Below, piece after piece: positions 15,729-46,604 of a stretch of 64,000 nucleotides of DNA; positions within the stretch are counted from its first letter, which is position 1, and every line of letters begins with the position of its first letter. The DNA is from an uncultured Alphaproteobacteria bacterium (GTDB lineage: Bacteria > Pseudomonadota > Alphaproteobacteria > Rs-D84). The notes beneath the pieces were generated by a model that was given only the letters and a program-made list of their open reading frames with translations, did no database searches and was not told where the DNA came from. Both the position numbers and the translations under genes were made by a program. The DNA lies in contig CASCZI010000002.1 of assembly GCA_949156565.1 (NCBI GenBank), positions 100,611-164,610 of the forward strand. Direction: 5' to 3'.

Positions 15729-15744
15729 CTGCACCCCCCGATGA

Positions 15745-16395: not shown

Positions 16396-16448
16396 TGAAA
16401 ATTCTCCTGTCTTGATAATTGATAATTAATTGCTATACTATAAATATA

Positions 16449-17366: not shown

Positions 17367-17379
17367 CCAACAACCGACC

Positions 17380-18414: not shown

Positions 18415-18449
18415 ATTGTTGGATACCACCCGGTTGGGATAACCCATTG

Positions 18450-18481
18450 AAAAATCCCCGCAACTGCGGGGATTTTTTTAC
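18450..18481. terminator. bidirectional rho-independent terminator
   Basis: TCCCCGCAACTGCGGGGA hairpin flanked by an A-run and a T-run, between convergent genes. Confidence 0.6.
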
Positions 18482-19074
18482 AATAAACACGCCAACGTTG
18501 CGCCCGTGTTTTTAATCATAAACCATCCAATACGATAATCCGTGGCATAAACCGTTGCCATAAATAACGCGATAATCGCAATGACGGCGATGACATTATT
18601 ACGCTTGCCCCGCATGCAATACAAACTGATGTTATAAAACAAGAACAACAGATAGATGTCGACCGCCAAACTGATGATCCACATCGACACACAATTAAAC
18701 GCCAGCGCATTAAGCACCAATATAACCGGATAAATGAAAAAGATCGATGCCAAACCCTTGATCGCGATTTCCCAATCACGTTCACCCCCCGTGATTTCGG
18801 ACACCAACATCATCAATCCCCCCATCACAAACAGCAATGTTACCGCCAACACCGGCACAATCACCACCGCGGTAAAGATGGCCCCAACCGTAATCGACGC
18901 CCCGCCGATCAAACGTAATATCAAAACCAGGACCCCGCCCAATAAACCATAAAGAAATGCACGCAACATCGATTCTTCTAAATTGCCATCGGCAACGATC
19001 TTGGTAAAGAATCGTTTCGGCTGGGTCAAAACACCTGTGATATGGGACATCCAAGATTTAATTTTTTTACGCAT
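18478..19074 (-). CDS. Yip1-family integral membrane protein
   Basis: A 198-aa protein with five TM helices and a Yip1-like topology. Confidence 0.45.
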   Translation of the reverse strand: MRKKIKSWMSHITGVLTQPKRFFTKIVADGNLEESMLRAFLYGLLGGVLVLILRLIGGASITVGAIFTAVVIVPVLAVTLLFVMGGLMMLVSEITGGERDWEIAIKGLASIFFIYPVILVLNALAFNCVSMWIISLAVDIYLLFLFYNISLYCMRGKRNNVIAVIAIIALFMATVYATDYRIGWFMIKNTGATLACLL

Positions 19075-19128
19075 GCGATAACTCCGGTTTGATTATTTCT
19101 ATTTTTGCTTTATAATTAAAAAAAATCA

Positions 19129-20523: not shown

Positions 20524-20657
20524 TTTGATCAACTATTGATGGCGTTCATCGCGTATAAAGGTTTATTAACTTTTCTATCCGCAATCCAACGCATACGGCG
20601 CGGAAAAATTCCGCGCCGTTATAAAAAAAAGGCCGGCATATCGCCGACCCGGGATTT

Positions 20658-20981
20658 TTACCATCCCCCCAGCGGACAACCGGAAATCCCCGGCAGGAAT
20701 TGCAACACAATCCCAATACCGAACAATAACGTAAATCCAACCAACAGACCCGTCCCTTTGTCTTTGACATCGTCCATTTTGACGTCGCCCTTGGAAATAT
20801 ATCCCCATGCCCATTGCGCGATAAAGAATGCCGCCCCCGCAAATGCCAACGTCCGCAAGGTACGAAATACCCCCTGCATCCCTGCAATCAAGGCACATGG
20901 ATCGGCGGCGCCGGTCGCACTGGCCATGGCGACACCACCGGTGGCCATTATCGCAATTAATGCAAATAAAAATTTATTCAT
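20658..20981 (-). CDS. TrbC/VirB2-family pilin-like protein
   Basis: A 107-aa protein with a long signal peptide ending in AAA. The mature part has two hydrophobic helices separated by a charged loop (SKGDVKMDDVKDKG), which is the VirB2 topology. Confidence 0.5.
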   Translation of the reverse strand: MNKFLFALIAIMATGGVAMASATGAADPCALIAGMQGVFRTLRTLAFAGAAFFIAQWAWGYISKGDVKMDDVKDKGTGLLVGFTLLFGIGIVLQFLPGISGCPLGGW

Positions 20982-21103
20982 ATTTATTCCCCTATGGTTT
21001 ATGCGTTATTTTAATTATATCATAATTTTACCCATGATTCAAGTTACACAAAAATCCCCCCAACAAAATAATTGCCGGGGGGAATTTATGGGCATAACCC
21101 GCC

Positions 21104-21511
21104 TTAGCGATTGGTGGGTACAATAATATAACGACGCCGTAAAACTATGGTATCATTGCCATTTGCCATACCGCATCCACATGTTTCTTTGACGGGTTGG
21201 GTTGATGGTTTGTTATCCATTTCAGATTGATCACCCGGCACCGGAACAATCATCGACCGATCACGGCGTGGGGCCACATGGGCATTGTCACGTGCGTACA
21301 AATCGGCACACATCGTGTCACGATAAATAATCTTTTTTTCATTATCTATGCCGCGAATGTCCGCCGAATAATTTTCGCCATATTCGGTCGCCGAATAAAT
21401 ACAATCACGCCCGTCTTGAACATATCGAATATCGCCCCGGAAATAATCATAATGCGTTCCGCATCCCGCCAACATCACCAAACCAATCATAGAAATTAAA
21501 AACGTTTTCAT
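21104..21511 (-). CDS. lipoprotein (hypothetical)
   Basis: A 135-aa ORF with an LAGC lipobox. Confidence 0.45.
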   Translation of the reverse strand: MKTFLISMIGLVMLAGCGTHYDYFRGDIRYVQDGRDCIYSATEYGENYSADIRGIDNEKKIIYRDTMCADLYARDNAHVAPRRDRSMIVPVPGDQSEMDNKPSTQPVKETCGCGMANGNDTIVLRRRYIIVPTNR

Positions 21512-22808: not shown

Positions 22809-23759
22809 ATGATTTCTAAACTCCCCGGCCGTCATTTCATGACGGTCATTTTTTTCATGGGGCAAAGGTTGAATTTGTTTTTATCGTTAATCATTTTTAT
22901 TGTTTTGTTCATCCCAGAAAAATCAATGGCCACCACGATTGAAATCCCCGATCGATCTATGAAGCTGTGCGCGATGCGCGGCGGGACACCGAACGAATTT
23001 TTTCAATGCTGTATTCATCGTTTGGCCGATGGGGATGATGATCCGGATGATGCCAATCATCATACCGAAAAAATTCCCCCCGATATTGAACAAATGCGGC
23101 AACGTGATATGGCCAATTGTTTAAAATTCCCCGGTGGCGGTGCCCGGGTATCTGTATCGACGGCATTCTGTGTTATATGGAATACAGATGACACAACGAA
23201 TGCCGGATCGCCGCGCGTTGACGCATATGCCACAGAAAATCAGGGTATCCCATATATAACGTTTTGTAATGGGGATCTTTGTTCGAACGCCCAATCCACA
23301 TCATGGTTATTAATGAAAGATGTCACCGGCAATGCCAATATGTATGTTATGCCATGGGCCTATACCTGGGCAAAACAAGATTGTGAAAGAAACGGCGGCA
23401 AACTTGATCTGGAAATCGGTACCAAACACCGCAACGCGTATATATATTGCCAAATCACTGGCACACCCAACGATGTCACCCGTGAAAAATGTGACGCATT
23501 GCAAATCCCGTGGTCTTTGGGGTATATCGATGAAAATATGGGCGGCTGGCACATCAGCGAAAGAACCAATGGTACCCCGACCCAGGCGACGTGCAGATAT
23601 ATACCACGCTTTTTCTATTATACCGCACGTGATATTCCTGGGACCTGCAGAGATAATATGATCGAAGATCCCGAAACGGGACATTGTATGTGTAAATACG
23701 GATATAACGGCGAATTCAGAAATTCCCCCTGTCGCGAACATCCAGAAAACCCGGAATAA
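22809..23759 (+). CDS. secreted cysteine-rich protein (family with CxC-KYGYNGE motif)
   Basis: A 316-aa ORF with a hydrophobic N-terminal signal or anchor and many Cys residues. The start may be downstream, at MTVIFF. A terminator follows. Confidence 0.5.
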   Translation: MISKLPGRHFMTVIFFMGQRLNLFLSLIIFIVLFIPEKSMATTIEIPDRSMKLCAMRGGTPNEFFQCCIHRLADGDDDPDDANHHTEKIPPDIEQMRQRDMANCLKFPGGGARVSVSTAFCVIWNTDDTTNAGSPRVDAYATENQGIPYITFCNGDLCSNAQSTSWLLMKDVTGNANMYVMPWAYTWAKQDCERNGGKLDLEIGTKHRNAYIYCQITGTPNDVTREKCDALQIPWSLGYIDENMGGWHISERTNGTPTQATCRYIPRFFYYTARDIPGTCRDNMIEDPETGHCMCKYGYNGEFRNSPCREHPENPE

Positions 23760-23802: not shown

Positions 23803-24795
23803 TTATTGCCCTTGTAATTCACGAATTAATTTTTGCAGACGTGCCATGCTGTCTTCGTCATTTAACGCGGTTGCAATGGTAAACGCACTATCTAAATCAT
23901 TCCGTGCCGATGCGACGTTCCCCAGGCTCAGGTTCAATGCCGCCGATTTTTCAAAATACGTCATCGCACGACTGGATAAATCTTCGCGTTCCTGGGCGGT
24001 GGTTGTACCTTGGATCTGTTCGGAAATAATCCGCACCGCCGATGTGTAATCATTGATCGCATCTGCGTATTGTCCCAATGCCGTATACGCTTCGGCCCGT
24101 TCGGCATAAACATTGGGCGTCACATTACCATCGGGACGTGCCAATGAATTTGTGTAATCGGCAATCGCCCCTTCCCAATTTTTTAGCCACAAATTCAATT
24201 GACCCCGACGCGCATACAAATCACGTAACCGTAATATGTCATTCGCGCCACCGGCCCGGGCGGCCAATGCGTTGTTAATATCATTCAACGCCGCCGAATA
24301 ATTTTCAAGCCGTGTATTCAACAATGACCGATCATAATACGCCACCGCATTATTGGGATCCAATTCAATCGCCCGATCAAAATCCCCCAATGCCGCGGCA
24401 AAGTTGGATGATTGCATATACGCTTCGCCCCGCAGAATCAACGCATCCACCGACGGATGGGCATCATCTATGGCCGCGCTCAGATCGGCGATCGCATCAT
24501 CGATTTGACCGGCAACCAACTTGGCCTTGCCTTGATCATAATAATCATTGGCCGGCACCAAGGCTTCTTCGGTGACGGAGACATTATTAACCACCGGATG
24601 CAAGATGGCATGACTGCGCCCCAGGATATAAAACGTTGCCGCAATAAAGAAAAGAATAATAAACCAATACAAATAAATCGACAATGACCACGGATTAAAA
24701 CGTGCCGGTGCCGTGTTGCTTTTGACCATTGCCTTGGCCGGCGCGGCGCGACGCGTGGCCTGTGTTTTCTTTGGTTGCGCTTTTTTCTGTTTCAT
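23803..24795 (-). CDS. membrane-anchored tetratricopeptide-repeat protein
   Basis: A 330-aa protein with a basic N-terminus and one TM helix, followed by multiple TPR units (AxxYxxRGxAY type). Confidence 0.7.
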   Translation of the reverse strand: MKQKKAQPKKTQATRRAAPAKAMVKSNTAPARFNPWSLSIYLYWFIILFFIAATFYILGRSHAILHPVVNNVSVTEEALVPANDYYDQGKAKLVAGQIDDAIADLSAAIDDAHPSVDALILRGEAYMQSSNFAAALGDFDRAIELDPNNAVAYYDRSLLNTRLENYSAALNDINNALAARAGGANDILRLRDLYARRGQLNLWLKNWEGAIADYTNSLARPDGNVTPNVYAERAEAYTALGQYADAINDYTSAVRIISEQIQGTTTAQEREDLSSRAMTYFEKSAALNLSLGNVASARNDLDSAFTIATALNDEDSMARLQKLIRELQGQ

Positions 24796-24819
24796 GGAAA
24801 TCTCCCTTGCCCTACGTTC

Positions 24820-25533
24820 TTATCCTTTATTGTAAAGAGATTTCATAATCGCGTCAATGCTTTTCTGGTCTAATTCGCAAATTTCACCCGGTTTTAAACG
24901 ATCGATCCCAATGGGCCCAAATGATATACGATGCAATTTCATCACCGGCGCCCCCACCGCACGCAAGACAATTCGAACCTCGTTCTTCTTCCCTTCGGTG
25001 ACCAGAACCCGCAATGTATGATCATCGACGACATCAATCCGCATGGGCCGGTAATGAATCCCATCGATCGTAATCCCACGCCGCGCCGCCCCCAGATTGG
25101 CCGCCCGTGCATTTTTTACCGTCGCAAGATAGGTTCGCGGTATCTGCGATTGGGGTAACGTTAATTGCCGCGCCACATCCCCGTTATTGGTCATCAACAA
25201 CAATCCTGTGGTCTTAAAATCCAATCGCCCAATATATTTTAGGTTTTTATATTCCACCCCCAACACGTCGTAAATGGTTCGCCGGCCGTTTGGATCACGT
25301 GTCGTGGTCATGGTATCGATGGGTTTATGAAATGCAAAGATACGCACCCTTGGATCACAATGAACATTATGACCATGAACCGTAACACGATCATCATCAC
25401 CCACAAAGAATACAGGCGTGTCCACAATGGTTCCATTAACCGCCACGGCACCGGTGGCGATCAAGCGTTCGGCATCCCGGCGCGACGCCACACCCGCGTC
25501 CGATAAAAATTTTCCCAATCGTATTGCCATCAC
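24820..25533 (-). CDS. rRNA pseudouridine synthase (RsuA/RluB family)
   Basis: An S4 RNA-binding N-terminus (KFLSDAGVASRRDAERLI) followed by a pseudouridine synthase core (GRLDFKTTGLLL). Confidence 0.85.
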   Translation of the reverse strand: MMAIRLGKFLSDAGVASRRDAERLIATGAVAVNGTIVDTPVFFVGDDDRVTVHGHNVHCDPRVRIFAFHKPIDTMTTTRDPNGRRTIYDVLGVEYKNLKYIGRLDFKTTGLLLMTNNGDVARQLTLPQSQIPRTYLATVKNARAANLGAARRGITIDGIHYRPMRIDVVDDHTLRVLVTEGKKNEVRIVLRAVGAPVMKLHRISFGPIGIDRLKPGEICELDQKSIDAIMKSLYNKG

Positions 25534-26204
25534 GCATCACCCCGACCCGTCATGGCCATCATAACGACGGCCGCCACTTCGGCACGTAAAATGGTTTTTC
25601 CCAATGAAACCGGTATGGCACCCCCCGCGCGCAATGCGTCAAATTCGGCGGGGGAAAATCCCCCTTCGGGTCCAATCAGAACACGATTGCCCGGCCGGGC
25701 CGCGCCCACCAAATCCCCATGCGCCGCACGTTCATCGCCAAACGCCAACCCCGCCATATCCAACCCAGAAAATTTAATCGGAGAATAAATTTTCGGCACA
25801 CTGTTTCGACCAGATTGTTCGGCCGCCTCTATCACGATTTTTTGCATGCGGTCCCAATGAATATGGTGCGCCACGGTGCGATCGGTCATCACCGGCACAA
25901 ACGCCGCCACCCCCATCTGGGTCGCCATGTTCATCAGATCATCTGTTTTTTTAATTGGTGCAAAATACATGGTGACGTCCCCCGACGGATCGGGGTGATC
26001 GGTGGCCGCCCCCACATCCAGGCTTTGCCCATCGCCCCCCAATTTGGCAGTGTATTCGATGCCCGCCCCAAAGACCAGACACGTATCGGTCCGCATAACG
26101 CGCGTCAAATAATGCGCCACATCACGCGTTATTGGCACCGTTACGCCCACCCCCAACGGGGCATCACAATAAATTCGTGGAATATTTTTCATGCACATCC
26201 CCAA
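25530..26204 (-). CDS. rsmE: 16S rRNA (uracil1498-N3)-methyltransferase
   Basis: N-terminal PRIY and the C-terminal SPOUT motif GPEGGFSPAE. The start may be the internal MKNIPRIY (26192). Confidence 0.8.
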   Translation of the reverse strand: MGMCMKNIPRIYCDAPLGVGVTVPITRDVAHYLTRVMRTDTCLVFGAGIEYTAKLGGDGQSLDVGAATDHPDPSGDVTMYFAPIKKTDDLMNMATQMGVAAFVPVMTDRTVAHHIHWDRMQKIVIEAAEQSGRNSVPKIYSPIKFSGLDMAGLAFGDERAAHGDLVGAARPGNRVLIGPEGGFSPAEFDALRAGGAIPVSLGKTILRAEVAAVVMMAMTGRGDA

Positions 26205-26250
26205 TTCATGTCTTTAACATCATCTTTTTTTCTGATATAATCATAACACA

Positions 26251-28506
26251 ATGGCACGCAAGTTCAACATTTTATCCAACAGCGCCGAAGGCAAAGGTCT
26301 GCGGATTTTTTCATCCGCCGCATACAAAGAACATGAACGCACGCCCATGGCGCGTACATTTTGGCGTATACGGTGGGCCTGTTATATCTGGTTGGTGTGT
26401 GCGTTGGGATTTTCATTGGCATTTGTGGTTGAACACATATGGCGATATGGATGGTCCCCGGCGACATTGGTATGGATAAAAACATATCTAACCCATGTGA
26501 TGACGACGGGTGGATTGGCCACGATGGCGGAAATTCCATCATGGGTTGCACGCACAATTTTCCGGACAGACATCATGTGCCTGGTTCCATTTTTGGCCAT
26601 TATTGCGTATTACTTTTTGGCCGACGCCACATTGGTTGATGAATTTAACCCCAATTCCAAGGATAAATTTGACGCCAAATCATCGAACAAGGCCACCGCC
26701 GAAGATATCGCCAAAATGGGCAAAAACGGTGGTAATTTATTCAAGGGTTTTATGATGGTCCTTGGGTATTTTAAGTACAAGGGTAAAATGACCGCCATGA
26801 TGTTTGACGAATGCCTCTCGGCGTTGTGCGTCGCGCCCCCCGGGACCGGTAAAACCGCGGGCGTGTGCGTCCCAACCATATTGGATTGCGACGGGGTGTC
26901 AATGATCATTAATGACCCGAAACCAGAATTAAAACAACAAACGTCTGGTTACCGGGCCAGTATTGGCCCCACATTCATTATGAACTGGGCCGGCCAAGAT
27001 GATCCGGCACGGGGCATCTATTACCCATCATGGAATCCGTTGTCACCCGAACACGTGCCATTTAATATGGAACAACGCGATCTGTATATTGATTCAATGT
27101 GCAAGGTGTTAATTCCCGACAACACGTCATCATCGGCCGATCCACACTGGTCTTTGACGGGGCGTGCGGGATTATCTGGTCTGATTCAATTTATTATTTC
27201 CAAAATCGAACGCGCCAAGGCCGATGATTATTTTTATTCCCGTCTGAATGCAGGCACATTTGATGCCGAAGATGCCGCTGTTTTAGGCGATTATTATCTG
27301 GCCATGATTCATGATCCAAATGCGTATGCGGCACACGCCATTTTGACACGCGGGGAATTAACGGCGCAAAACTATGTCCATATTGGTACATGGTCCAATA
27401 TCCCCGACGCATGGCACGGGAAAGAGGCATCGCTCTCTATGATTCTGGATTGGATGAACGCGAACCAGATCCGCATCGCCCAGGAAATGGAATCCCGTCG
27501 TCGCCAGGGGGATCAAATGGTCATGATGGCCGACCCCATGAAAGATCTGTTCGAAGACGCCGTCAAAGAAGCGCGCCAATTCGCCTATGCCCACCGCGCG
27601 ATTTTGGAATTAACGCAACTGGCCAATACCCCGGACAAGGAACGCGGATCCATCCTTTCGACGATTCAATCGGGCCTGGGGATATTCCGAAATGCCGCCG
27701 TTCGCAACCGGACCAGTCATTCGGACTTTCACTTTTCGGATCTGCGGGGCCTGCGCGATCCCCGCGACGGCAAGGTAAAGCCGGTGACGGTCTATCTTTC
27801 GATCAATCTGGTAGATGCCCAGGCGTTAAACCCCATTACCGGGATCTTTATCGAATTGATGTCAAATTACCTGTTGGCGAACGCCCCCAATACAACAAAC
27901 GCCAGTGGCCAGAAAATGGGCCCCTATCCCGTCTTGTTCGTGTTGGACGAAATGCCCAAGATGCAAAAACTTGACGCCGTGATTCAGGGACCTGACCTGG
28001 GGCGTGGGCAACAAATATCGTATTTAATTATTGGTCAGGATCTGCACCAGATCGCGGAAAAATACGGCCAAGACGCCGCCGCCACAATTATTTCCACAAC
28101 GGCCGGGAAAATCGTCTTGCGTCAAAATGACCCCGACAGTGCGAAACGCTTTTCCGAAATGATCGGGATGAAGGTGAAAAAGAAAATGGTAAAGGGACCT
28201 GACGGCAAAGAAACCGAAACGGATGACCGCGAACCCCTTTATTCCGAAATGGACATCATGAAATTACCAGAGGGCAAACAACTGGTCATTATTCAGGGAC
28301 ACTATAACCGCCCGATAGAGGCATCCCAAGAACGCTGGTTTAAAAATAAATCAGAGATCGAGAAAAAATTATATGCCAAAGTAATGATGGGCGAAGCGCC
28401 CCCCCTGCCTGAATTTTTGGTCCCATCCCATCACCGGGCATTGTCCTATCCGGGCGTACCAAAAATCTATTACCCGGCCACCAAAGAATTAAAGGTATTG
28501 GGATAA
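26251..28506 (+). CDS. type IV secretion coupling protein (VirD4/TraG family ATPase)
   Basis: Two N-terminal TM helices and a Walker A (VAPPGTGKTAG). It also has a DPKPEL motif, a Walker B (VLFVLDEMP) and a Q-x-x-x-QI...YG motif. The protein is 751 aa with a roughly 150-aa C-terminal extension. An alternative start lies at 26347. Confidence 0.8.
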   Translation: MARKFNILSNSAEGKGLRIFSSAAYKEHERTPMARTFWRIRWACYIWLVCALGFSLAFVVEHIWRYGWSPATLVWIKTYLTHVMTTGGLATMAEIPSWVARTIFRTDIMCLVPFLAIIAYYFLADATLVDEFNPNSKDKFDAKSSNKATAEDIAKMGKNGGNLFKGFMMVLGYFKYKGKMTAMMFDECLSALCVAPPGTGKTAGVCVPTILDCDGVSMIINDPKPELKQQTSGYRASIGPTFIMNWAGQDDPARGIYYPSWNPLSPEHVPFNMEQRDLYIDSMCKVLIPDNTSSSADPHWSLTGRAGLSGLIQFIISKIERAKADDYFYSRLNAGTFDAEDAAVLGDYYLAMIHDPNAYAAHAILTRGELTAQNYVHIGTWSNIPDAWHGKEASLSMILDWMNANQIRIAQEMESRRRQGDQMVMMADPMKDLFEDAVKEARQFAYAHRAILELTQLANTPDKERGSILSTIQSGLGIFRNAAVRNRTSHSDFHFSDLRGLRDPRDGKVKPVTVYLSINLVDAQALNPITGIFIELMSNYLLANAPNTTNASGQKMGPYPVLFVLDEMPKMQKLDAVIQGPDLGRGQQISYLIIGQDLHQIAEKYGQDAAATIISTTAGKIVLRQNDPDSAKRFSEMIGMKVKKKMVKGPDGKETETDDREPLYSEMDIMKLPEGKQLVIIQGHYNRPIEASQERWFKNKSEIEKKLYAKVMMGEAPPLPEFLVPSHHRALSYPGVPKIYYPATKELKVLG

Positions 28507-28604: not shown

Positions 28605-28636
28605 AAAAAACCGCCCATATGGGCGGTTTTTATTTA
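28605..28636. terminator. bidirectional rho-independent terminator
   Basis: CCGCCCATATGGGCGG hairpin flanked by an A-run and a T-run. Confidence 0.6.
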
Positions 28637-29848
28637 GCCATTTAATGCTTCGAACCCGACGGTCATATATAATGTTTTCCAATGTCCGGCATCTTTGCCC
28701 GTTGATTGCGGGTTGTTCCCCAGACTGCGACTGCGTTCGACGGTGGTCAACACCAAATCAGACCCCACACGTTCTAAAATTTTAAACGGATCAACACCGT
28801 CACGCCACGAATAGACGCCATCTTTTTCCACGACCAGTGCCCGGAATGCCCCCAGTATAGGATAAATAAATCCCGTTGGCGTCATATAATCCATCGGCTT
28901 TTGATAATACTTGGACATTGCCCCTTCGAATGGAACAACCCCCTTAATCGCACCATATTTACCGTTTGTAACCGCATTGCGATAGAAATCCGCCATAGAC
29001 ACTTCGATCTGATCATAAAGCTTGAAAATATCCACCATAATGTTTTTCATTTTCACATACGGATTCTGGGGCGAATCCTTATGCGCTTTATATTGCGATA
29101 AATACGTATCCAGACATCTCTTTTTTCCGCTGTATGAAATGGTTGCCGCCACATCTTTGCCGTCATATTGATCGATATTGAACATGTTTAAAACCGCCAA
29201 AACGTCCATGACGTCAATGTCCCCCCTTTCGTCATTTTCTTTGTACACCAAACGTGATGCAAACGGTTCGTTTTTTAACGCGTCTTTGACAATATCAAAC
29301 TTGTTTTCCAATTCGGCCAACGATTGATCTTTGACCTGAACCGATGTGTTACGGGCGCCGGCCAGCTCTTGAAAAATCGATTCAACCCCGGTCAATATTT
29401 CCAAACGCACATATTGTTGATCCGGCCCCAGGGAATCTTTGCATTGTTGAATAATTTTATAGGTGTGCCCCCCGTCCACGTTGCCATGCACCGCCGGATC
29501 TTCGAAAACCACACTTAATTCGTTATTATAATTGTTATAACTCACACTTTTCGCCGATAATAAGATCCCGCGATTCATTAAAAAGAAATACGGCGATCCC
29601 ACATCCATCAATGTGTTACGTATTCCCTTGGCCACAAATGTGGTTAATTTTTGTTCCCGCGGATTGGTTTCCATCGGAATATTGTTCGGCAATTTGGTCA
29701 CATCACACATCGCGATATAGGCCATCGGATGTGTCTGGGCGGAAAATTCCACCTCTTCCCCGATATAGGGATTGGGAATTTTCCGTAATGACTTTACCGG
29801 AAATTTTATTTCAATGGGTGCCTTTTGGGCTTTGATTTTTTCTGTCAT
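28634..29848 (-). CDS. putative abortive-infection/defence protein (AIPR-like; ParB/DGQHR-like N-terminal motif), tentative
   Basis: A 404-aa cytoplasmic protein. An FFLMNRGILLSA segment resembles the AIPR NNGIT block. A NVDGGHTYKII segment resembles the DGQHR/DGQQR motif of ParB-like nuclease domains. It is divergent from an XRE regulator and bracketed by terminators. Confidence 0.35.
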   Translation of the reverse strand: MTEKIKAQKAPIEIKFPVKSLRKIPNPYIGEEVEFSAQTHPMAYIAMCDVTKLPNNIPMETNPREQKLTTFVAKGIRNTLMDVGSPYFFLMNRGILLSAKSVSYNNYNNELSVVFEDPAVHGNVDGGHTYKIIQQCKDSLGPDQQYVRLEILTGVESIFQELAGARNTSVQVKDQSLAELENKFDIVKDALKNEPFASRLVYKENDERGDIDVMDVLAVLNMFNIDQYDGKDVAATISYSGKKRCLDTYLSQYKAHKDSPQNPYVKMKNIMVDIFKLYDQIEVSMADFYRNAVTNGKYGAIKGVVPFEGAMSKYYQKPMDYMTPTGFIYPILGAFRALVVEKDGVYSWRDGVDPFKILERVGSDLVLTTVERSRSLGNNPQSTGKDAGHWKTLYMTVGFEALNG

Positions 29849-29995
29849 TCTTTGCTCCTGTCTAAGGTTTGTTATCGGATACGCTGTCTAACGAGCCATC
29901 CATATTTAAATAATAAGACACCCAAATCATCAATTCAACGTCATATATGACGTTTTTTGCTTGCAAAATGCATTTTTTTAATAAAAAATTCGATC

Positions 29996-30214
29996 ATGAA
30001 CGACATTAATCGTGAATTTGGCCAAATTTTACGCCGTTTTCGACGGGGACGTAATTTGCCCCAGGATAAATTTGCCGACCAATGCGGGATTAGTCGCGCC
30101 TATTACGGGCGCATTGAACGCGGCGAATACAGTCCTACGATCACCCTATGCCATCGAATTGCGACGGCCCTGTCGATCACGATGGATGATCTTTTTCGTG
30201 ATATGCCCATATAA
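29996..30214 (+). CDS. XRE-family helix-turn-helix transcriptional regulator
   Basis: About 72 aa, with the Cro/C1-type HTH (QDKFADQCGISRAYYGRIERGEYSPTI). The start is taken at MNDIN; the ORF track begins at 29957. Confidence 0.7.
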   Translation: MNDINREFGQILRRFRRGRNLPQDKFADQCGISRAYYGRIERGEYSPTITLCHRIATALSITMDDLFRDMPI

Positions 30215-30257
30215 TCCCCCCCTGTTTCTTTGGACCGGGGGATGGATCAATCGTAAT

Positions 30258-31043
30258 TTATTCCATCCGATACGTTGTGCCACCAACCGTCACATGAATC
30301 CCGGTGCCATGGCCGGCCGTCAAATTTCCGTAACAGATGCCGCCCGGCGTCCGAATGACCAGTGTCGGCGTCGTATATTTAACCGGGAACAATGGCGCAG
30401 TATTGGTTCCGGCGTGAATTTGCGTTACCCCCGCCGTACAGAGCGGTTGGCACACGTCCCCGACGCGCCCATATCCCGCGTCACATTCCCACGGGCAATC
30501 ATTGGCGTCCGTGATGGACCCATCGGGCGCGTCGGGGGTACCCGGACCGGTATAGTGCGCGTGCGCGGGGGCATTGGTACACGGGCGGACATTGTGATAC
30601 CATTTTTTCCAGGATTCGTTACGATAACCCGACAAATAAAATCCCCATCCCGCATCATACCAAAGATAACGGGTTTGATCATCCGACCAATAGTTTTCCC
30701 CATTCCAAGAGACTTCAAGCAAGAATGAATTTCCATCAGAATCACGGAAATACAAACTACCCGCACAATTAAAGATGCTGGAATTGTTTTGGGGGCTGGC
30801 CCAGTTTGCCTCTGATCCGTCAAAAAAGGTATAGCCAAATTGGTTATAATCCGTATCGGTCGTGGGGCACGGATGGCGAACATCATCCCCCGGACAATAA
30901 TAGGGTTCATAGCCCGGGGAACAGTTTGAACACGACCCATTATTCAGATAATACCCCGCCGCACATATTGCCGCATGGGCCGTCGCCCCGCCGCCCAAGA
31001 AGACGGCGACCACGCCCAAAAAACCGACAGTTTTTTTAGGCAT
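30258..31043 (-). CDS. secreted cysteine-rich protein (C-x-AG-Y-Y family)
   Basis: A 261-aa ORF with a signal peptide. It contains CAAGYYLNNGSCSNCSPGYEPYYC and CDAGYGRVGDVCQPLC, with many Trp and Tyr residues. Confidence 0.55.
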   Translation of the reverse strand: MPKKTVGFLGVVAVFLGGGATAHAAICAAGYYLNNGSCSNCSPGYEPYYCPGDDVRHPCPTTDTDYNQFGYTFFDGSEANWASPQNNSSIFNCAGSLYFRDSDGNSFLLEVSWNGENYWSDDQTRYLWYDAGWGFYLSGYRNESWKKWYHNVRPCTNAPAHAHYTGPGTPDAPDGSITDANDCPWECDAGYGRVGDVCQPLCTAGVTQIHAGTNTAPLFPVKYTTPTLVIRTPGGICYGNLTAGHGTGIHVTVGGTTYRME

Positions 31044-31220
31044 AGTTGGGGGGAAAATTTGTCGCAGAAATCCGGGATTTTTAATTTTAGAATTATGCCT
31101 AAAAAAACTGTCCCTTTGGATTAGGCATAGTCAAATCACGTTCAACCCCAGGAATTATACCCGTTAGCACGATTTTTGACAAGGGGAAAATTGGGAACAA
31201 CGCCCCCCCGTATGGGATCT

Positions 31221-31352
31221 AAATAAAAGACCACCTCTCCCCTTCGTGGCACCCCTCCACCGGAGGGGAACCTGGACCGAACAAGCCTGAGTCTCAGTTC
31301 TCCTCCTGTGGAGGAGTACCCCGAAGGGGAGAGGTGGTCTTTACTTGAACTC
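31221..31352. repeat. GC-rich nested-palindrome MITE-like repeat, copy B (compact form)
   Basis: Perfect terminal inverted repeats: AAAGACCACCTCTCCCCTTCG at 31226-31246 and CGAAGGGGAGAGGTGGTCTTT at 31322-31342. Internal hairpins are CCCTCCACCGGAGGG and CTCCTCCTGTGGAGGAG. The core reads CTGAGTCTCAGTTCTCCTC. Confidence 0.6.
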
Positions 31353-31450
31353 TGCACCCTGTATTGGCGACCAAGGCCCGGATCCCCACCCAAAATATTT
31401 CTTGACAAATCATTATTATGTATTATATTAAAGGATACAAAAGAGGATAA

Positions 31451-31873
31451 ATGATGAATCCGGTATTCAAAGAACAGATTCTTAGTTTAGCAAAATCCAA
31501 CCCGATCACCTTTCGCCGGACCGAGGTCGAAGAAGTATACTCTATTCAAGATTCGAATAATCAGCCATTAATCCATCTGATCAAAACCCTGCGTTCGGGA
31601 ACCTATGCATTGGTGATCAATCGCGCGATTGTTGTACGGGCCACATTTCCCGACGATCGGTTGGGCGCGAAATTACAAGACCTGATGGACGTTATGGAAA
31701 TCGAATCAACATGCAATCGCACTGTTCTGGAACGGGCAGAGTATCGACAAACACTTGAAAAGATGTCCGATCATGAAAGACGTGCCTCTAACTTTATCAA
31801 TGACGTCATGTTACAGCAATACAAAGAAAAAAACATGTTGTTGCCGCACGAGAAGAAATCATTAACCCGTTAA
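31451..31873 (+). CDS. hypothetical protein
   Basis: A 140-aa ORF with no recognisable motifs; a terminator follows. Confidence 0.4.
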   Translation: MMNPVFKEQILSLAKSNPITFRRTEVEEVYSIQDSNNQPLIHLIKTLRSGTYALVINRAIVVRATFPDDRLGAKLQDLMDVMEIESTCNRTVLERAEYRQTLEKMSDHERRASNFINDVMLQQYKEKNMLLPHEKKSLTR

Positions 31874-41361: not shown

Positions 41362-42645
41362 TTATTTTTTACCCCCGCCAATCCCACGCAGATTTTTCCA
41401 TCCCTTACGCGTGGTGTCCCATAATTTTTTCAAATCGCCCCCCAACTGTTTGCTGATATTTTCTTTGACACTGCCGCCCAAATCTGTGGCCAATTTTTCG
41501 GCCCGCGTCACCATATATGCCGCCAAGAACCCCACCAACAACGTGACCATCCCATCGCCTTGATTAATTATTGGCATGCCATTTCCATCAAAATGTATCA
41601 CAAATCCCATCAACGCCGCCGCAACCGCAACAACCATGGCCAAGGATATAAAATAAATCGACGCATCAATAAATCGTCCCAACTGGGTCGTTAGGTTTTC
41701 TGACTTGAAAATCCCCATAAACCCATTGAATATATCCCCGGCAATCCCTTTGTAATTGGTTTTCGTAACCGTTTCTGCCACCGCGGTAAACGGTAACATG
41801 AACAAGGCCAAAAACAATTCGGCAATGACCCCCAACGCCATCAATGTAAATTTCCATATATTAAATACAAAAACAAATACCATGGCCGCCCCGACGACAA
41901 ATCCCGTCACACTGTGCCCGATCCCCCCAATCATCCAACGCCATCCGGTTGCAATCGCGGTATAGAAAAATCCAGTAATCCGGGTTGGCAAACACATCAA
42001 ATCTGCCGCCGTACCGGCGTCCAGGATTAATCCATCCCCGGCATTGGCCACAACATATTGATGGACCGCCGCACACGTATCGGGCAATGTCACACCCGCG
42101 GTTTGCGTCACCGCCCCTAAAATCAAATCGGCCATATATGATCCAAACATCACGATCGGCGTCACAATCCATACAAACAACCGCGCCGGCCCCACATTTA
42201 AGATCATAATCCAGACCGTAATCAATATCCCCCGGGTAAAAATCTTTTGAACCAAATCCCATGCTTTTTGTCCATCGCGCATCATTTGATACGTATCAAA
42301 CATGATCCAAAATGCATATGCAATAATGATAAACATGATCATAAACCGGACCAACGAACTTTCCAATATTTCCCCAATTAATGACATCGCCCCCACAAAG
42401 GCCAAACCAATACGTGCCTCTGGCGGGACAAAGCCCGGTGTCCGATATGAATCTTGGATGGAACCTGAAAATGCGGCCATATCATGGGATAAATTTTGTG
42501 TAAACGCGGCCGCATTGTGTTCGGTCATCCATGTTCCATAATCCCCAATATCGCCCGGCGTGGTGGGGGTGGCACCCCACACCGGCGTGGCCATCAATGC
42601 CACCGCCATTACAATTGCCCGAATAAAATGACACAAACGGTGCAT
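41362..42645 (-). CDS. VirB6/TrbL-like polytopic membrane protein, paralog 1
   Basis: A 427-aa protein with a signal peptide, about 6-8 TM helices, a central loop bearing a Cys pair, and a Gly/Lys-rich C-terminal tail. It is one of five paralogs. Confidence 0.45.
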   Translation of the reverse strand: MHRLCHFIRAIVMAVALMATPVWGATPTTPGDIGDYGTWMTEHNAAAFTQNLSHDMAAFSGSIQDSYRTPGFVPPEARIGLAFVGAMSLIGEILESSLVRFMIMFIIIAYAFWIMFDTYQMMRDGQKAWDLVQKIFTRGILITVWIMILNVGPARLFVWIVTPIVMFGSYMADLILGAVTQTAGVTLPDTCAAVHQYVVANAGDGLILDAGTAADLMCLPTRITGFFYTAIATGWRWMIGGIGHSVTGFVVGAAMVFVFVFNIWKFTLMALGVIAELFLALFMLPFTAVAETVTKTNYKGIAGDIFNGFMGIFKSENLTTQLGRFIDASIYFISLAMVVAVAAALMGFVIHFDGNGMPIINQGDGMVTLLVGFLAAYMVTRAEKLATDLGGSVKENISKQLGGDLKKLWDTTRKGWKNLRGIGGGKK

Positions 42646-42651
42646 GACGCC

Positions 42652-44088
42652 TTACTCCTTGCCACCAATGGCTTTGGAAATCCGTACCACAACATTCTGG
42701 GGGATTGCCCAAATCTTTTTCCCCAATTCTTTGACCGCCCCACCGAAATCAAAGCTTTGGGATGATTTCTTGGCCAAAATCCCATCAACCTTGGGATTAA
42801 CCACGTAAAAGTAAAGCAAACACAACCCCACCATCACCATCAAGAAATCCCATCCATCATCCAAGAAATCGAACGCCCCCGGATATCGACGTTCCACCAT
42901 TGTTTTTTGTGTGTTAAAACATTGACGAAACGCATCTGCATCCATTTCACCCGATTGCAATCCCACCTGTTCACATGTGGAAAAGACATGATGAATGGCC
43001 ATTGTTTGGGCATCTGAATGAACCGGCCCCGATATACCCATTAATGGGGGCATAATGGCACTGTACCCATCACGTGGACCGGGCATTGTCATATCCGCCG
43101 CATAGGATATGGTTGCATATATAATCAAAATCTTTAACGTGATTGCCACAATTTGAACCGCGGCATTAAACAACATTTCGACGGCATTCTTTACCAACCC
43201 ATCGGCCAATTTCCACGTTCCTTCGAACGCACTGGCCGCCAAGAGTAACGGCATAAATATAATCACAAAGATTAATCTAAACACAACCGAAAGAACCTGG
43301 AAAAACAAATTAAACCCAATCATCAAGAAAATTATCACCAATGCCAATCCTGCAACCCATGTCATGGCCCCACCACCCATGCCCAACCATGCATAATTCA
43401 TCAATGAAAATCCCGCCGCCGCACCGGCCAACATCACGGTATTTAAATTTCCCATAACACACATAAACGGCCGCAACACAGGATTAAGAACATCGTCACT
43501 TTCCCCAGACATGGGACATGCCGCCGCCGATTCAACACCCGTTGCCGCCATGGCCAATTCAGATCCCACAAACATAACCGGCGCCACCGTGATATTGGTC
43601 ACCACACGTAACGCGCCCGTCCCCCCCATCCCCAGGGTCCCCATCAGCACCCCCACAATCATCACACGCGACCCGAGTTTCCATACCTTGTCCACCCACG
43701 GGGCCAATTCTATTTTACGTTCTTTGTCATCGGGATTGGCCGCCGCAACGGCCGCATCGTAAATGTATTTCGCACTATAGAGAAACAGCCATACCCCAAA
43801 CCCAATCGCCAACACAATCCACAAATGATCGACAATCGCGGTCCAAAACATTTCGGTCCCGGCCCCGATCGCCCCAAACAATTTTTCAATATACCCACAC
43901 AAGAAACATCCATTGACCGATGCAATATCACCATCACCCACCCCAATGGCACGCAGAAATCCCGGCAAACTGGTGTACGTCAAACTGGCCCCACCAATCG
44001 ATGACGACAGATACCATATCCCCACCCCCAGCGCAATCGCCGCAAACAAAAAACGCACGGCAATAATGATTATCTTGGCCTTGAACAT
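42652..44088 (-). CDS. VirB6/TrbL-like polytopic membrane protein, paralog 2
   Basis: A 478-aa protein with the same architecture: a central loop Cys pair, an FxxxFMP proline helix, and a basic tail. Confidence 0.45.
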   Translation of the reverse strand: MFKAKIIIIAVRFLFAAIALGVGIWYLSSSIGGASLTYTSLPGFLRAIGVGDGDIASVNGCFLCGYIEKLFGAIGAGTEMFWTAIVDHLWIVLAIGFGVWLFLYSAKYIYDAAVAAANPDDKERKIELAPWVDKVWKLGSRVMIVGVLMGTLGMGGTGALRVVTNITVAPVMFVGSELAMAATGVESAAACPMSGESDDVLNPVLRPFMCVMGNLNTVMLAGAAAGFSLMNYAWLGMGGGAMTWVAGLALVIIFLMIGFNLFFQVLSVVFRLIFVIIFMPLLLAASAFEGTWKLADGLVKNAVEMLFNAAVQIVAITLKILIIYATISYAADMTMPGPRDGYSAIMPPLMGISGPVHSDAQTMAIHHVFSTCEQVGLQSGEMDADAFRQCFNTQKTMVERRYPGAFDFLDDGWDFLMVMVGLCLLYFYVVNPKVDGILAKKSSQSFDFGGAVKELGKKIWAIPQNVVVRISKAIGGKE

Positions 44089-45327
44089 TTATTGTGCGCC
44101 CCCATCTTTGGATGTATCTTTTTTCTGGGTTGCGTCACCCGATTTTTTCGCATCCGCGCCGGCATCACCCAAAATTGTTTGTCCCAATTGCTTGGTCGCC
44201 CCAACCAGTGTCTTGGTTAATTGCCCCGCATCATTGGCCAAACCTTTGCTAATTTTGGTTTCGGTTCCAACATCAAATGCCCCCAGAACCATTTTCGTCA
44301 CATCGGGAACCATTGATATCAAGAAATTTACCACATACACCAACACCACCGCCCCCATCAGGGTGACCCCCGCCAAGTTTTCATCACTTAAATCCGACGC
44401 CAACACCGTACCCGATGTAATTTTTCCCATTAAATCGACGCCACCCGCATCCGCGCCCCCAAAGAATTTGGCAATCAAAACCATCGCCACGGTATATGTT
44501 AATACCGCCGCACCCAACGCGACAATTGCATTAATCACTTTTTTAATCTGATCTGTCCCCATCTTTTTCCCATAATTTTTCATCCAATCGGGCGCGTCTG
44601 ATTGACGGAATGCGAACAGCGCCAACGACAATGGAAAGAAAAACGCAAAATACGTCATGGCCACAATTATATCGGCAAAATAAAAACAATACCGCACAAA
44701 TAATTTAAAGAATCCATACACCAGATATAACCCAATAAAAAACATCATTACGTGTTTAATAAATGCACCAATTCCCCCCAACGCCCCCCACGAAAACGCC
44801 GCATCCATCACCGCCAGGCCCAATTTAACATACGCCTGAAATTGGGTGACCGTGGTTTTCATAAGCATAATGATCCGATCGCGCAATTGGGGCCGATAAA
44901 ATCCGTCGTCACCCATTGGCATCGGCGTATAATCCACCCGCGCATCAACCGCATCATCGGTCATACCCGACACCACCTGAGTATAACGCAGGGTAATTTC
45001 CGCCACCGGTTCAAATGTAATCGATGTCACAACACGGGGCACGACCACCCCCATAGCCAATAATGTTAACGCCACCAGCGCACTGATCAGAACGGGTTGA
45101 ACCGATTTTTTATAAAACGGGTCTTTGACCCCATCTTTGATATTTTTCCACACCGCATTGATGATGTAAAATGCCAACAACCCACAAAACAACACCACAC
45201 ACAACGTGGCAAATTTTCCGTACGCCGCGGCGGCCGCACCGGACACCACATTAATCAGTTTGTCAAACACCGGACATCCCCAGCATTGAACCACATGATC
45301 GACCAAAGGATTCATTGCATTATTCAT
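44089..45327 (-). CDS. VirB6/TrbL-like polytopic membrane protein, paralog 3
   Basis: A 412-aa protein with an N-terminal CWGCPVF motif (compare CWSCDMF in paralog 5), multiple TM helices, and a charged tail. Confidence 0.45.
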   Translation of the reverse strand: MNNAMNPLVDHVVQCWGCPVFDKLINVVSGAAAAAYGKFATLCVVLFCGLLAFYIINAVWKNIKDGVKDPFYKKSVQPVLISALVALTLLAMGVVVPRVVTSITFEPVAEITLRYTQVVSGMTDDAVDARVDYTPMPMGDDGFYRPQLRDRIIMLMKTTVTQFQAYVKLGLAVMDAAFSWGALGGIGAFIKHVMMFFIGLYLVYGFFKLFVRYCFYFADIIVAMTYFAFFFPLSLALFAFRQSDAPDWMKNYGKKMGTDQIKKVINAIVALGAAVLTYTVAMVLIAKFFGGADAGGVDLMGKITSGTVLASDLSDENLAGVTLMGAVVLVYVVNFLISMVPDVTKMVLGAFDVGTETKISKGLANDAGQLTKTLVGATKQLGQTILGDAGADAKKSGDATQKKDTSKDGGAQ

Positions 45328-46604
45328 TTCTTTTTCGTCAGCCCCAGTGCCCCCGTCACCCCACGTCCCATCTTTTTGATATTGCCCGCCATTTTTTTGG
45401 CATCCCCCGTCACGGCGTTATACATTTTATCCATATCCGGTGCATACTTCTTTAACTGATCACGGGTCCGTTGAAAGATTTGACCCATCAAATAAAATGT
45501 TAAAATCGCCGTCAACCACAACACCGAATGTGTACCAAATCCAAGATCCGGGGCAAGCGTGGGTACATTACCGGCGGCCATACCGTTTGTGCCCGCCACA
45601 AAAACCGATGAATCCCACCGAAACAAGGCATGAATCACCGCAACGTTAATACATAAAATAAACGCACACGCAATCATGGTAATCACCAGTTTTTGTAACG
45701 CGGTTACAATACCAGAAAACGGGGGCCAAATATCAAACCATTTATCGGGATTTTTTGGCTTTGCCACCCATGTTAAAACATTAAAGGGATATAATATTAA
45801 TGCCATGACAAAGTTAAAAATTGCCTGAATAATCAATAACGCCATAAATAAATTACATCCCACAAACGCAAAGACCAACAAAATACCCGTAATAATGTTC
45901 AGAAAATCTTCGCCCCCATGTGGAATCAATGTCGCCAATCCCCGAATACCACGATCGATAAAATCAAATCCGCGCTTGATCACCTGATTGTTGGCGTGAC
46001 TGATGTCGGCCACTGGTTGAACCAGGAATTGACATGACGACGCACTGATCCATTCATGGGATAAAACATCTGCCGGACATTCAATTTGCGGCCCGCGACC
46101 ACCGGCGACGGCGGCACTGATCCGATTGGTATAAATCGCCCCAAATTCAAGAAAAGGATTTACCAGCCATTCGGTGACAAATACCGGTCGAACCTGTAAC
46201 AAAACCAACGCCGCGATTAACCCGCGCATTAATGGACGGGCCACATTTTGTACGATCGATGTACCCGATGCCTTGCCGTCCCACATTTCACCGCCACCCG
46301 AAAATCCTAAAAATCCCAACCATGATTTCGGAATGTACATTTTCACCAAATACATCCCAATGGAAATTCCCACAAACCCATAAACCAAAATATAAACAAT
46401 TCCACCACCGTGGCCCACAAAATAATCATATGTGGCGGTCGCCACCATCATCATGGTATCCAAAATCAACGGCACAAACGGCGCCAGGTTTAAATGATCC
46501 ACAATACCCCATGCGGCATGCGCCCCCACCGGCATTATAAATGCCGCCGCGGCCAAACACGCACCGAAAAAAACCCGCCAAAAACGCGATTTAAATAAAT
46601 ACAT
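45324..46604 (-). CDS. VirB6/TrbL-like polytopic membrane protein, paralog 4
   Basis: A 426-aa protein with a signal peptide, a Cys pair in the central loop, and a KKMAGNIKKMGRG tail. It overlaps paralog 3 by 4 bp. Confidence 0.45.
   Translation of the reverse strand: MYLFKSRFWRVFFGACLAAAAFIMPVGAHAAWGIVDHLNLAPFVPLILDTMMMVATATYDYFVGHGGGIVYILVYGFVGISIGMYLVKMYIPKSWLGFLGFSGGGEMWDGKASGTSIVQNVARPLMRGLIAALVLLQVRPVFVTEWLVNPFLEFGAIYTNRISAAVAGGRGPQIECPADVLSHEWISASSCQFLVQPVADISHANNQVIKRGFDFIDRGIRGLATLIPHGGEDFLNIITGILLVFAFVGCNLFMALLIIQAIFNFVMALILYPFNVLTWVAKPKNPDKWFDIWPPFSGIVTALQKLVITMIACAFILCINVAVIHALFRWDSSVFVAGTNGMAAGNVPTLAPDLGFGTHSVLWLTAILTFYLMGQIFQRTRDQLKKYAPDMDKMYNAVTGDAKKMAGNIKKMGRGVTGALGLTKKK

Follow-up and report, generated by a model that had tools for sequence, protein, structure and literature searches.

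The stretch of DNA analysed here (the window, 64,000 nucleotides from an uncultured alphaproteobacterium of the order Rs-D84) contains at 26251-28506 an open reading frame (ORF) for a type IV coupling protein (T4CP) of the VirD4/TraG type, which stands alone in a block of housekeeping genes. Such a location raises the question of whether the protein serves a type IV secretion system (T4SS), works in some other process or is a leftover of a mobile element. In our view the product of the gene is probably the coupling ATPase, of VirD4 type, in a VirB/VirD4-like T4SS that Candidatus Enterousia inherits vertically on its chromosome, with the genes dispersed in small islets over genomes of ~0.9 Mb. 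The sequence evidence most likely points to a T4SS that is conserved and dispersed and has not been described so far, made up of VirD4, VirB3, VirB4 and five VirB6-like proteins, in an uncultured but prevalent lineage of the gut; the T4CP itself belongs to an ordinary protein family and is found in an instructive setting. Enterousia is placed in the GTDB order Rs-D84 and has genomes under ~1 Mb; members of the order have no respiration, are without standard transporters and many biosyntheses, and are regarded as dependent on partner cells (PMC12306168). The order is also rich in unexplained membrane proteins, and its genome analysis points to 'hypothetical membrane-bound proteins', with the word 'secretion' appearing nowhere in it (PMC12306168). 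We found no description of a T4SS of the Enterousia/Rs-D84 lineage in the literature.

We compared the ORFs of the window with the Pfam and NCBIfam profiles, taking gathering scores or model cutoffs as thresholds. The coupling-protein ORF scored 168 bits against Pfam T4SS-DNA_transf (PF02534; E 3.8e-49, cutoff 20.1), and it also exceeded the gathering scores of TraG-D_C (PF12696; 68 bits, E 8e-19) and TrwB_AAD_bind (PF10412; 61 bits, E 1.4e-16). Judged from these profiles, the ORF codes for a genuine T4CP and a chance resemblance is excluded. The Walker A, DPKPEL, Walker B and Q...YG motifs named in a preliminary description of this DNA are all present in the translation (Table 1), and their key residues are invariant. 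In the P-loop, G198, G200 and K201 do not vary among 26 orthologues and are conserved in plasmid T4CPs. The stretch of residues 595-606 reads GQDLHQIAEKYG, in which Q596, Q600, I601 and Y605 are invariant in the orthologue and plasmid alignments, and G606 among the orthologues only.

The two hydrophobic helices of the N-terminal anchor are helical in an AlphaFold2 model with a local pLDDT (predicted local distance difference test score) of 70-88, and the loop between them is conserved among the orthologues. They are preceded by a conserved cytoplasmic extension of ~30-35 amino acids (aa), within residues 1-39, that is lineage-specific and missing from the plasmid relatives. The 56-aa insertion, a gap in both closest plasmid T4CPs, is highly conserved across the orthologues and contains an invariant DPNAYAA. 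Since residues ~298-490, between Walker A and Walker B, are predicted all-helical in a low-confidence model (mean pLDDT 49), this region may correspond, with low confidence, to the all-alpha domain of T4CPs, such that the insertion would lie within it. The extra length over the plasmid relatives is accounted for by the N-terminal extension (~30 aa), the membrane region and this insertion. The protein thus resembles the VirD4/TraG/TrwB family in its two transmembrane helices, its P-loop nucleoside triphosphatase (NTPase) domain with Walker A/B, DPKxE and Q...YG motifs and, if the model is followed, its all-alpha insertion; however, it is a very divergent member, carrying the N-terminal extension and the 56-aa insertion and encoded by a stand-alone gene in a housekeeping block.

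At the other end of the protein, the Pfam T4CP domain finishes at about residue 701, which leaves a tail of ~50-55 aa whose PLPEFLxPSHH motif is invariant across the 26 orthologues. This tail is no longer than in the two closest plasmid T4CPs, with which it has the PLPEF motif in common. An acidic/basic C-terminal extension of about 150 aa had been described before; it is absent. The acidic/basic residues, KVKKKMVKGPDGKETETDD at aa ~640-660, form a variable loop inside the NTPase domain, upstream of the conserved MDIMKL...QG.Y.RPIEA that ends this domain. The comparison across relatives proposed for that extension instead showed a tail that is conserved and as short as in plasmid T4CPs. With no long extension, the substrate-recognition module suggested for it is ruled out.

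How widespread is the gene? One genome per species was scanned in a survey of the lineage, 300 genomes were found to carry a T4CP relative, and the best 80 loci (L001-L080) were fetched. In these 80 the protein is full length and 70-87% identical to that of the window; the metagenome-assembled genomes are labelled Candidatus Enterousia, Alphaproteobacteria or 'Rickettsiales bacterium' and come from the guts of humans, ruminants, horses, birds and rodents. One T4CP-bearing genome is a circular chromosome of 958,618 bp. At the 90% identity level, the homologues form more than 120 clusters (70-88% identity, full length, 731-767 aa), all from uncultured gut Alphaproteobacteria except for one record suspected of mislabelling. 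That record, orthologue P0025 (74% identity), is named 'Lachnospiraceae bacterium' at NCBI, probably through a binning or labelling error.

Conservation extends over the whole protein: the mean column identity in the 26 orthologues is 79%, including the N-terminus, the membrane region, the insertion and the tail, and all the catalytic residues are invariant. The ratio of nonsynonymous to synonymous substitution (dN/dS) against the orthologues is 0.07-0.1, with synonymous sites near saturation. Median identity of the T4CP (72%) equals that of the essential GTPase Der (72%), while that of the rRNA-modification neighbours is 58%, and the GC content of the gene is not distinctive. The block formed by the tetratricopeptide repeat (TPR) protein gene, rsuA, rsmE and the T4CP gene is found at fixed offsets in 77-79 of the 80 loci, and the flanks outside it are repeatedly rearranged between species. 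A block with a sigma factor, a porin, a BamB-like protein and der (15000-20523), for instance, is upstream of the T4CP gene here and downstream of it in ~40 related loci. As the neighbours are housekeeping genes in fixed order, we regard the locus as part of the chromosomal core, and the T4CP gene is a strongly conserved core gene of Candidatus Enterousia.

Pfam scans of the other ORFs in the window returned neither a recognised VirB protein nor a relaxase, and there is no recognisable T4SS gene within ~10 kb on either side of the T4CP gene. A tblastn search with MobA/MobL likewise matched neither the window nor any of the 80 loci (~1.7 Mb). A relaxase or tra cluster close to the gene, which had been named as the finding that would turn it into a remnant, is therefore missing from the window and the 80 related loci. 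Together with conservation, fixed synteny and purifying selection, this argues that the gene does not belong to a decaying mobile element and bears out the earlier view of it as a secretion component rather than a degraded conjugative one.

The partners of the coupling protein were approached through its relatives on plasmids. In a plasmid collection, the closest T4CPs were those of the megaplasmids of Erythrobacter aureus (NZ_CP031358), Sphingosinicella (NZ_CP035502) and Microvirga (pMVF16-3, NZ_CP069357), with 32% identity over ~570 aa (E 2e-84 to 9e-74), whereas ordinary conjugative T4CPs are only ~25% identical to the protein of the window; after these Sphingomonadales/Hyphomicrobiales systems came the plasmids of Ca. 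Paracaedimonas. Two of the operons were inspected, and in both, from Erythrobacter and Microvirga, the T4CP gene is the last of a complete virB2-3-4-5-8-9-10-11-D4 operon accompanied by a MobA/MobL relaxase. All the VirB proteins and relaxases of these two operons were used as tblastn and blastp queries against the window and the 80 loci. The sole accepted match was a VirB4 of 805 aa in locus L067, 31-32% identical to the plasmid VirB4 over 800 aa (E 1e-123). A VirB3-like gene comes before it, and the T4CP gene begins ~5.6 kb downstream of the stop codon of this virB4, in the same contig.

VirB4 of Enterousia is found in more than 120 clusters at an identity of at least 78% and matches Pfam CagE_TrbE_VirB; NCBI records name it 'hypothetical protein'. 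Its gene has a fixed context, ychF - sufBD-like - virB3 - virB4 - an ORF of 190-208 aa - housekeeping genes (rml or lpx), and VirB4 is a core gene of the lineage as well. In at least five cases the longest contigs of T4CP and VirB4 clusters are identical in size (695,807; 287,479; 117,175; 74,618; 201,727), which fits the co-residence of both genes on the same contigs. In the plasmid collection, VirB4 of Enterousia and the T4CP have their top three matches on the same three plasmids, so that the two proteins descend from one type of T4SS. The label of 'orphan' given earlier to the T4CP gene thus describes its immediate neighbourhood and not the lineage, where relatives carry virB3-virB4 and the window itself the VirB6-like genes described below. 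The idea of scattered T4SS genes, put forward at the same time, agrees well with a virB3-virB4 islet among housekeeping genes and a VirB6-like cluster elsewhere. The likeness to the Erythrobacter/Sphingosinicella/Microvirga P-type conjugative systems lies in the T4CP and VirB4 sequences and in the PLPEF tail motif. However, those systems have a contiguous virB2-virB11 operon ending in the T4CP gene, with a MobA/MobL relaxase and replication genes, whereas Enterousia has its genes scattered over the chromosome, with VirB6-like genes present five-fold and no relaxase seen in the window or the 80 loci.

The ORF of 190-208 aa that comes right after virB4 encodes a conserved secreted protein (L067 4402-5025; L083 12414-13040; L086 12464-13036). 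It overlaps virB4 in L067 and L083 and has no family match, and the copy of L067 contains an HExxH-like HEDEH; it could be an unrecognised component of the T4SS. A type IVb pilus-like cluster is found in relatives some 7 kb away from virB3-virB4 (L008 16712-21385; L083 19390-22421; L086-L088 19163-22415); it encodes PAP_PilO-like, coiled-coil and polytopic T2SSF-like proteins and a T2SSE ATPase of 545 aa. Pilin-like N-termini are present in several loci, e.g., L073 3930-4460. The VirB11-like BLAST matches in L008, L009 and L022 proved to be this same ATPase and not VirB11. Two other candidates were discarded. The proteins of 428-453 aa that hold the position of VirB6 in the plasmids have at most one N-terminal hydrophobic segment, are not polytopic and hence are not VirB6. 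The 107-aa gene of the window with a pilin-like topology (Table 1) is 79% identical in L001 and overlaps a longer spurious ORF on the + strand (20536-21126); it was aligned by hhalign to the plasmid VirB2 with a probability of 0.6% and matched no Pfam or NCBIfam family.

Beginning 13 kb downstream of the T4CP gene, and not mentioned in the preliminary description, are genes for five polytopic membrane paralogs, four in tandem on the reverse strand and a fifth on the forward strand, transcribed divergently from them. They match one another in blastp with E from 1e-13 to 1e-4 (in a small database), are annotated as hypothetical in public records and lie between PBP1A and rpmE. All five are conserved across the lineage at an identity of at least 60% (60-81% for the orthologues of the fifth), and none has a direct match to Pfam or NCBIfam profiles even at E<=10. 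The AlphaFold2 model of the fifth was compared by Foldseek with 350,542 PDB chains, and the best matches were chains of the TrwJ/VirB5-TrwI/VirB6 stalk complex of R388 (8rtd_L, 8rt9_F and 7o3v_F/G/J), with a probability of 0.75-1.0 (1.0 for four of the five chains) and a template modelling score, by target, of 0.42-0.55 (0.52-0.55 for the top matches, all at probability 1.0). As the output names no subunit, we take these chains to be TrwI/VirB6 from their length of ~260-270 residues each. A profile of the VirB6-like family gathered 1065 relatives among 1.84 billion representatives, and 5 of 10 and 8 of 77 remote relatives matched Pfam TrbL/VirB6 (best E 1e-8). Among the matches listed individually, one exceeds the gathering score, and in five remote relatives so listed the TrbL/VirB6 match overlaps the region of the family profile; no other family recurs among the remote relatives. 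Because of these matches and those of the fold, we assign the five paralogs with fair confidence to divergent VirB6/TrbL proteins, and the four in tandem are probable channel subunits of the same T4SS as the T4CP. A profile of one paralog, A2, gave a chance match only when compared with PDB sequences.

Four of the remote relatives (P0466, P0494, P0504 and P0510; 999-1497 aa) have an N-terminal M23 peptidase domain before the VirB6-like region, a fusion that would couple cell-wall hydrolysis to a channel subunit. Three of the four match Pfam TrbL/VirB6, and one M23-bearing relative also has a VgrG3-like C-terminal domain.

Taken as parts of one system, these proteins suggest the following operation. 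By analogy with other members of its family, the T4CP would be anchored in the inner membrane through its two N-terminal helices and assemble into an ATP-hydrolysing ring. It would bind the secretion substrates, plausibly through the enlarged all-alpha domain, and hand them to VirB4 and to an inner-membrane channel made of VirB3 and the five VirB6-like paralogs. We infer that T4CP, VirB3, VirB4 and the VirB6-like proteins form one working machine, that virB4 is present in the genome from which the window comes, and that an outer-membrane core (VirB7/9/10) and VirB11 exist.

Several findings weigh against this proposal. The best NCBIfam equivalog of the T4CP, NF045973 (CD1115), scored 129 bits with a cutoff of 250, and the VirD4 models 88 and 62 bits with cutoffs of 728 and 681; all NCBIfam models stayed far under their cutoffs, such that the protein joins none of the curated equivalogs VirD4, IncP TraG, F TraD and CD1115. 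The alignment to T4CP structures that had been proposed gave a result in part: a phmmer search of PDB sequences with the single sequence found no match, but the profile of the T4CP family matched one protein, Helicobacter pylori Cag5 (Cag-beta, PDB 8dol), which is the coupling protein in a T4SS that translocates effectors. The match is marginal (E 0.0086, 17 bits), spans the Walker B half (aa 470-702) and bears no sign of a specific relationship. From these low scores and the weak Cag5 match, the protein appears as a divergent member of the T4CP family, outside every curated VirD4/TraG/TraD/CD1115 subfamily. Its AlphaFold2 model on the 26 orthologues is poor (pLDDT 49, predicted template modelling score 0.29), a consequence of an alignment that lacks any diversity under 70% identity. 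For the fifth VirB6-like paralog, the model is of medium confidence (pLDDT 61.7) and the Foldseek E-values are weak (0.02-0.54; 0.02-0.15 for the top matches). The evidence for virB4 comes from the loci of relatives, the window's own assembly not being among them. The window, the 80 T4CP loci and six VirB4 loci yielded no homologue of VirB7, VirB8, VirB9, VirB10 or VirB11, and a complete diderm T4SS is therefore not demonstrated. The negative result for the relaxase covers the 64-kb window and the 80 related loci, a relaxase or an oriT may lie elsewhere in the genome, and the type of substrate is deduced purely from context.

For that context, the rvh system of the Rickettsiales is the natural comparison. 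In Rickettsia, virD4 usually ends the virB8-virB11 islet; in the rvh systems of the Rickettsiales, VirB4, VirB8 and VirB9 are duplicated, the VirB6 proteins have 600-1400 aa, and the multiplication of VirB6 and the scattering of genes are features of an effector-translocating system. Enterousia shares with these bacteria a reduced alphaproteobacterial genome, a partner-dependent lifestyle, T4SS islets among housekeeping genes, a tandem VirB6 family, a linked virB3-virB4 pair and, as far as the window and the 80 loci show, the lack of an associated relaxase. Nevertheless, its VirB6-like proteins are of 412-478 aa and do not adjoin virB3-virB4; its virD4 is monocistronic, with its own promoter and terminator, and is not the end of a virB8-11 islet; neither VirB8/9/10/11 nor a duplicated VirB4 was seen in the window or the fetched loci. 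Enterousia belongs, moreover, to the order Rs-D84 and not to the Rickettsiales, and its nearest relatives found were the Sphingomonadales/Hyphomicrobiales plasmids in a comparison that included no Rickettsiales sequences. A stand-alone virD4 had been likened before to rvh; the scattered genes and the tandem VirB6 family suit that comparison, whereas a virD4 on its own is unlike the usual rvh arrangement, so that the parallel would be one of analogy.

With no relaxase seen, a gene layout resembling that of the effector-translocating rvh and a lineage thought to be partner-dependent, effector proteins or macromolecules exchanged with a partner cell would be more likely substrates than a conjugative plasmid. 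More tentatively, one may imagine that Enterousia/Rs-D84 domesticated a plasmid-type VirB/VirD4 system into a scattered, rvh-like core machine with five VirB6 paralogs, independently of the Rickettsiales, in which the T4CP with its unique insertion would act as a lineage-specific substrate gate and the whole as an organ for exploiting gut partner cells, bacteria or protists, or exchanging macromolecules with them; such a broad scenario is possible, although we would sooner doubt it than adopt it. The matter has some reach, as Ca. Enterousia/Rs-D84 are common in human, livestock and wildlife guts and uncultured. The T4CP with VirB3/VirB4 and the five VirB6-like proteins provides a concrete candidate machine for partner-cell interaction, which makes the question of the Enterousia lifestyle testable, and if true it would be the second case, this one outside the Rickettsiales, in which an alphaproteobacterium of reduced genome has a dispersed T4SS and a multiplied VirB6. 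It also bears on annotation, as public records leave the VirB4 and VirB6-like genes as 'hypothetical'.

DNA transfer or release stays a serious rival to protein cargo. According to this explanation, which we judge unlikely but well worth keeping in sight, the T4CP would serve a domesticated chromosomal DNA-transfer system (conjugation-like transfer between cells, or else the release or the uptake of DNA) with its relaxase encoded elsewhere, and the DNA would be exchanged or used as a source of nucleotides. The lineage lacks nucleotide biosynthesis (PMC12306168). The ancestral type of system is conjugative, with MobA/MobL in the plasmid relatives, yet no relaxase was detected in the 64-kb window or in ~1.7 Mb of related loci. 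T4CPs are classically ATPases of DNA transfer, comF lies 3.4 kb downstream of the T4CP gene and relatives have the type IVb pilus-like cluster near virB4; on the other hand, VirB6 multiplication and gene scattering are, from what is known of rvh, effector-translocating traits, and the known DNA-uptake system of the T4SS type, ComB of H. pylori, runs without VirD4.

A second alternative is that a T4CP-like ATPase was recruited elsewhere, without a T4SS channel, for instance as a membrane translocase of DNA or protein that works with the type IVb pilus-like apparatus or as a defence component linked to the neighbouring gene for an abortive-infection-type (AIPR) protein. The gene is transcribed alone, its product is highly divergent from the curated VirD4/TraG models, and the loci listed above yielded no outer-membrane core genes; however, the lineage also conserves virB3-virB4 and the VirB6-like genes, which are natural partners for it, and VirB4 has the same plasmid ancestry. 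The link to defence comes from the AIPR neighbour and from a weak PADLOC match to mad8 (E 1e-5, 23 bits), but the match is partial, and we judged it as generic NTPase similarity, and AIPR is missing from all 80 related loci. We regard recruitment of this sort as improbable, and we rejected a role in defence by association with AIPR on account of the absence of the islet from all relatives.

Least credible by far is the idea that a plasmid or conjugative element once integrated here and left behind a traG/virD4 without any role in secretion: the T4CP gene does stand without adjoining virB genes, next to a strain-specific islet, and its closest relatives outside the lineage are plasmid T4CPs beside MobA/MobL relaxases, but the 80 relatives fetched of the 300 are full length and 70-87% identical, they occupy the same housekeeping block in 77-79 cases and not a variable mobile location, the low dN/dS, the invariant catalytic motifs and the conserved promoter speak of use, the GC content is not distinctive, no relaxase is nearby, and the islet, missing from relatives, is adjacent by accident.

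We return to the preferred reading, a conserved coupling ATPase of a dispersed T4SS, for the way in which its gene is expressed. The -10 element of the promoter-like sequence ends 9-10 nucleotides ahead of the ATG, a Shine-Dalgarno sequence is absent and the mRNA is therefore probably leaderless or nearly so. The extended -10 element (TGATATAAT/TGGTATAAT) is found at the same distance from the T4CP ATG in 52 of 53 related loci. A terminator downstream had already been noted, and a strong hairpin is indeed located there, between the T4CP gene and the AIPR gene. With a conserved promoter and this terminator, the T4CP gene forms a conserved single-gene transcription unit. The coordinates of these elements and of the other features of the window are collected in Table 1.

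Table 1. Features of the window that bear on the coupling protein, its surroundings and its putative partners.
Feature	Position	Strand	Basis or remark
T4CP gene, VirD4/TraG-type	26251..28506	+	751 aa, ATG start; single-gene expression unit
N-terminal membrane anchor, two hydrophobic helices, aa 40-64 and 102-129	26368..26637	+	Hydropathy scan
Walker A / P-loop APPGTGKT, aa 195-202	26833..26856	+	Translation; orthologue and plasmid T4CP alignments
T4CP signature DPKPEL, aa 222-227	26914..26931	+	Invariant in orthologue and plasmid T4CP alignments
Lineage-specific 56-aa insertion, aa 324-379, putative all-alpha domain	27220..27387	+	Gap in both closest plasmid T4CPs
Walker B VLFVLDEMP, aa 561-569	27931..27957	+	D566 and E567 invariant in both alignments
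Q...YG motif QDLHQIAEKYG, aa 596-606	28036..28068	+	Orthologue and plasmid alignments
Short C-terminal tail, ~50-55 aa, PLPEFLxPSHH motif	28339..28503	+	Pfam domain end; orthologue and plasmid alignments
Promoter-like TTAACA-16-TATAAT, extended -10 (TG)	26214..26241	+	11/12 consensus match
Bidirectional intrinsic-terminator-like hairpin	28606..28631	.	11-bp stem with flanking A-run and T-run; between T4CP and convergent AIPR gene
TPR protein, RsuA-like, RsmE block	23803..26204	-	Pfam/NCBIfam; housekeeping syntenic neighbours
rsuA-like pseudouridine synthase	24820-25533	-	Profile match
rsmE	25530-26204	-	Directly upstream of T4CP gene and divergent from it
AIPR protein (abortive-infection-type)	28634-29848	convergent with T4CP gene	PF10592
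Divergent C-protein-like helix-turn-helix (HTH) regulator	29957-30214		Downstream of AIPR gene
107-aa called gene, VirB2/TrbC-pilin-like topology	20658-20981	-	Signal peptide and two hydrophobic helices
Four tandem divergent VirB6/TrbL-like polytopic membrane proteins (427, 478, 412 and 426 aa)	41362..46604	-	Paralogy; remote Pfam matches; gene calls match public annotation
Fifth VirB6/TrbL-like paralog, 429 aa	46663..47952	+	Transcribed divergently from the other four; fold match, remote homology

The T4CP gene had been said to follow rsmE; the two do adjoin, rsmE lying upstream, but on opposite strands, so that they are divergent rather than co-directional. On the other side, a defence-like islet had been pointed out, and the AIPR and HTH genes are there; nevertheless, they and two unknown genes up to 31873 are missing from all 80 related loci, and in the closest relative, L001, der comes directly after the T4CP gene. 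From this absence, the islet is a strain-specific insertion without a functional link to the T4CP. Besides AIPR and HTH, the islet (28634-31873) encodes a Cys-rich secreted protein of 261 aa and an unknown protein of 140 aa. Secreted Cys-rich proteins and a weakly matching leucine-rich repeat protein of the BspA type, without family, are encoded at 22809-23759 (+), 30258-31043 (-) and 36442-37764 (+), and in a genome with few recognisable transporters they are candidates for surface proteins or effectors.

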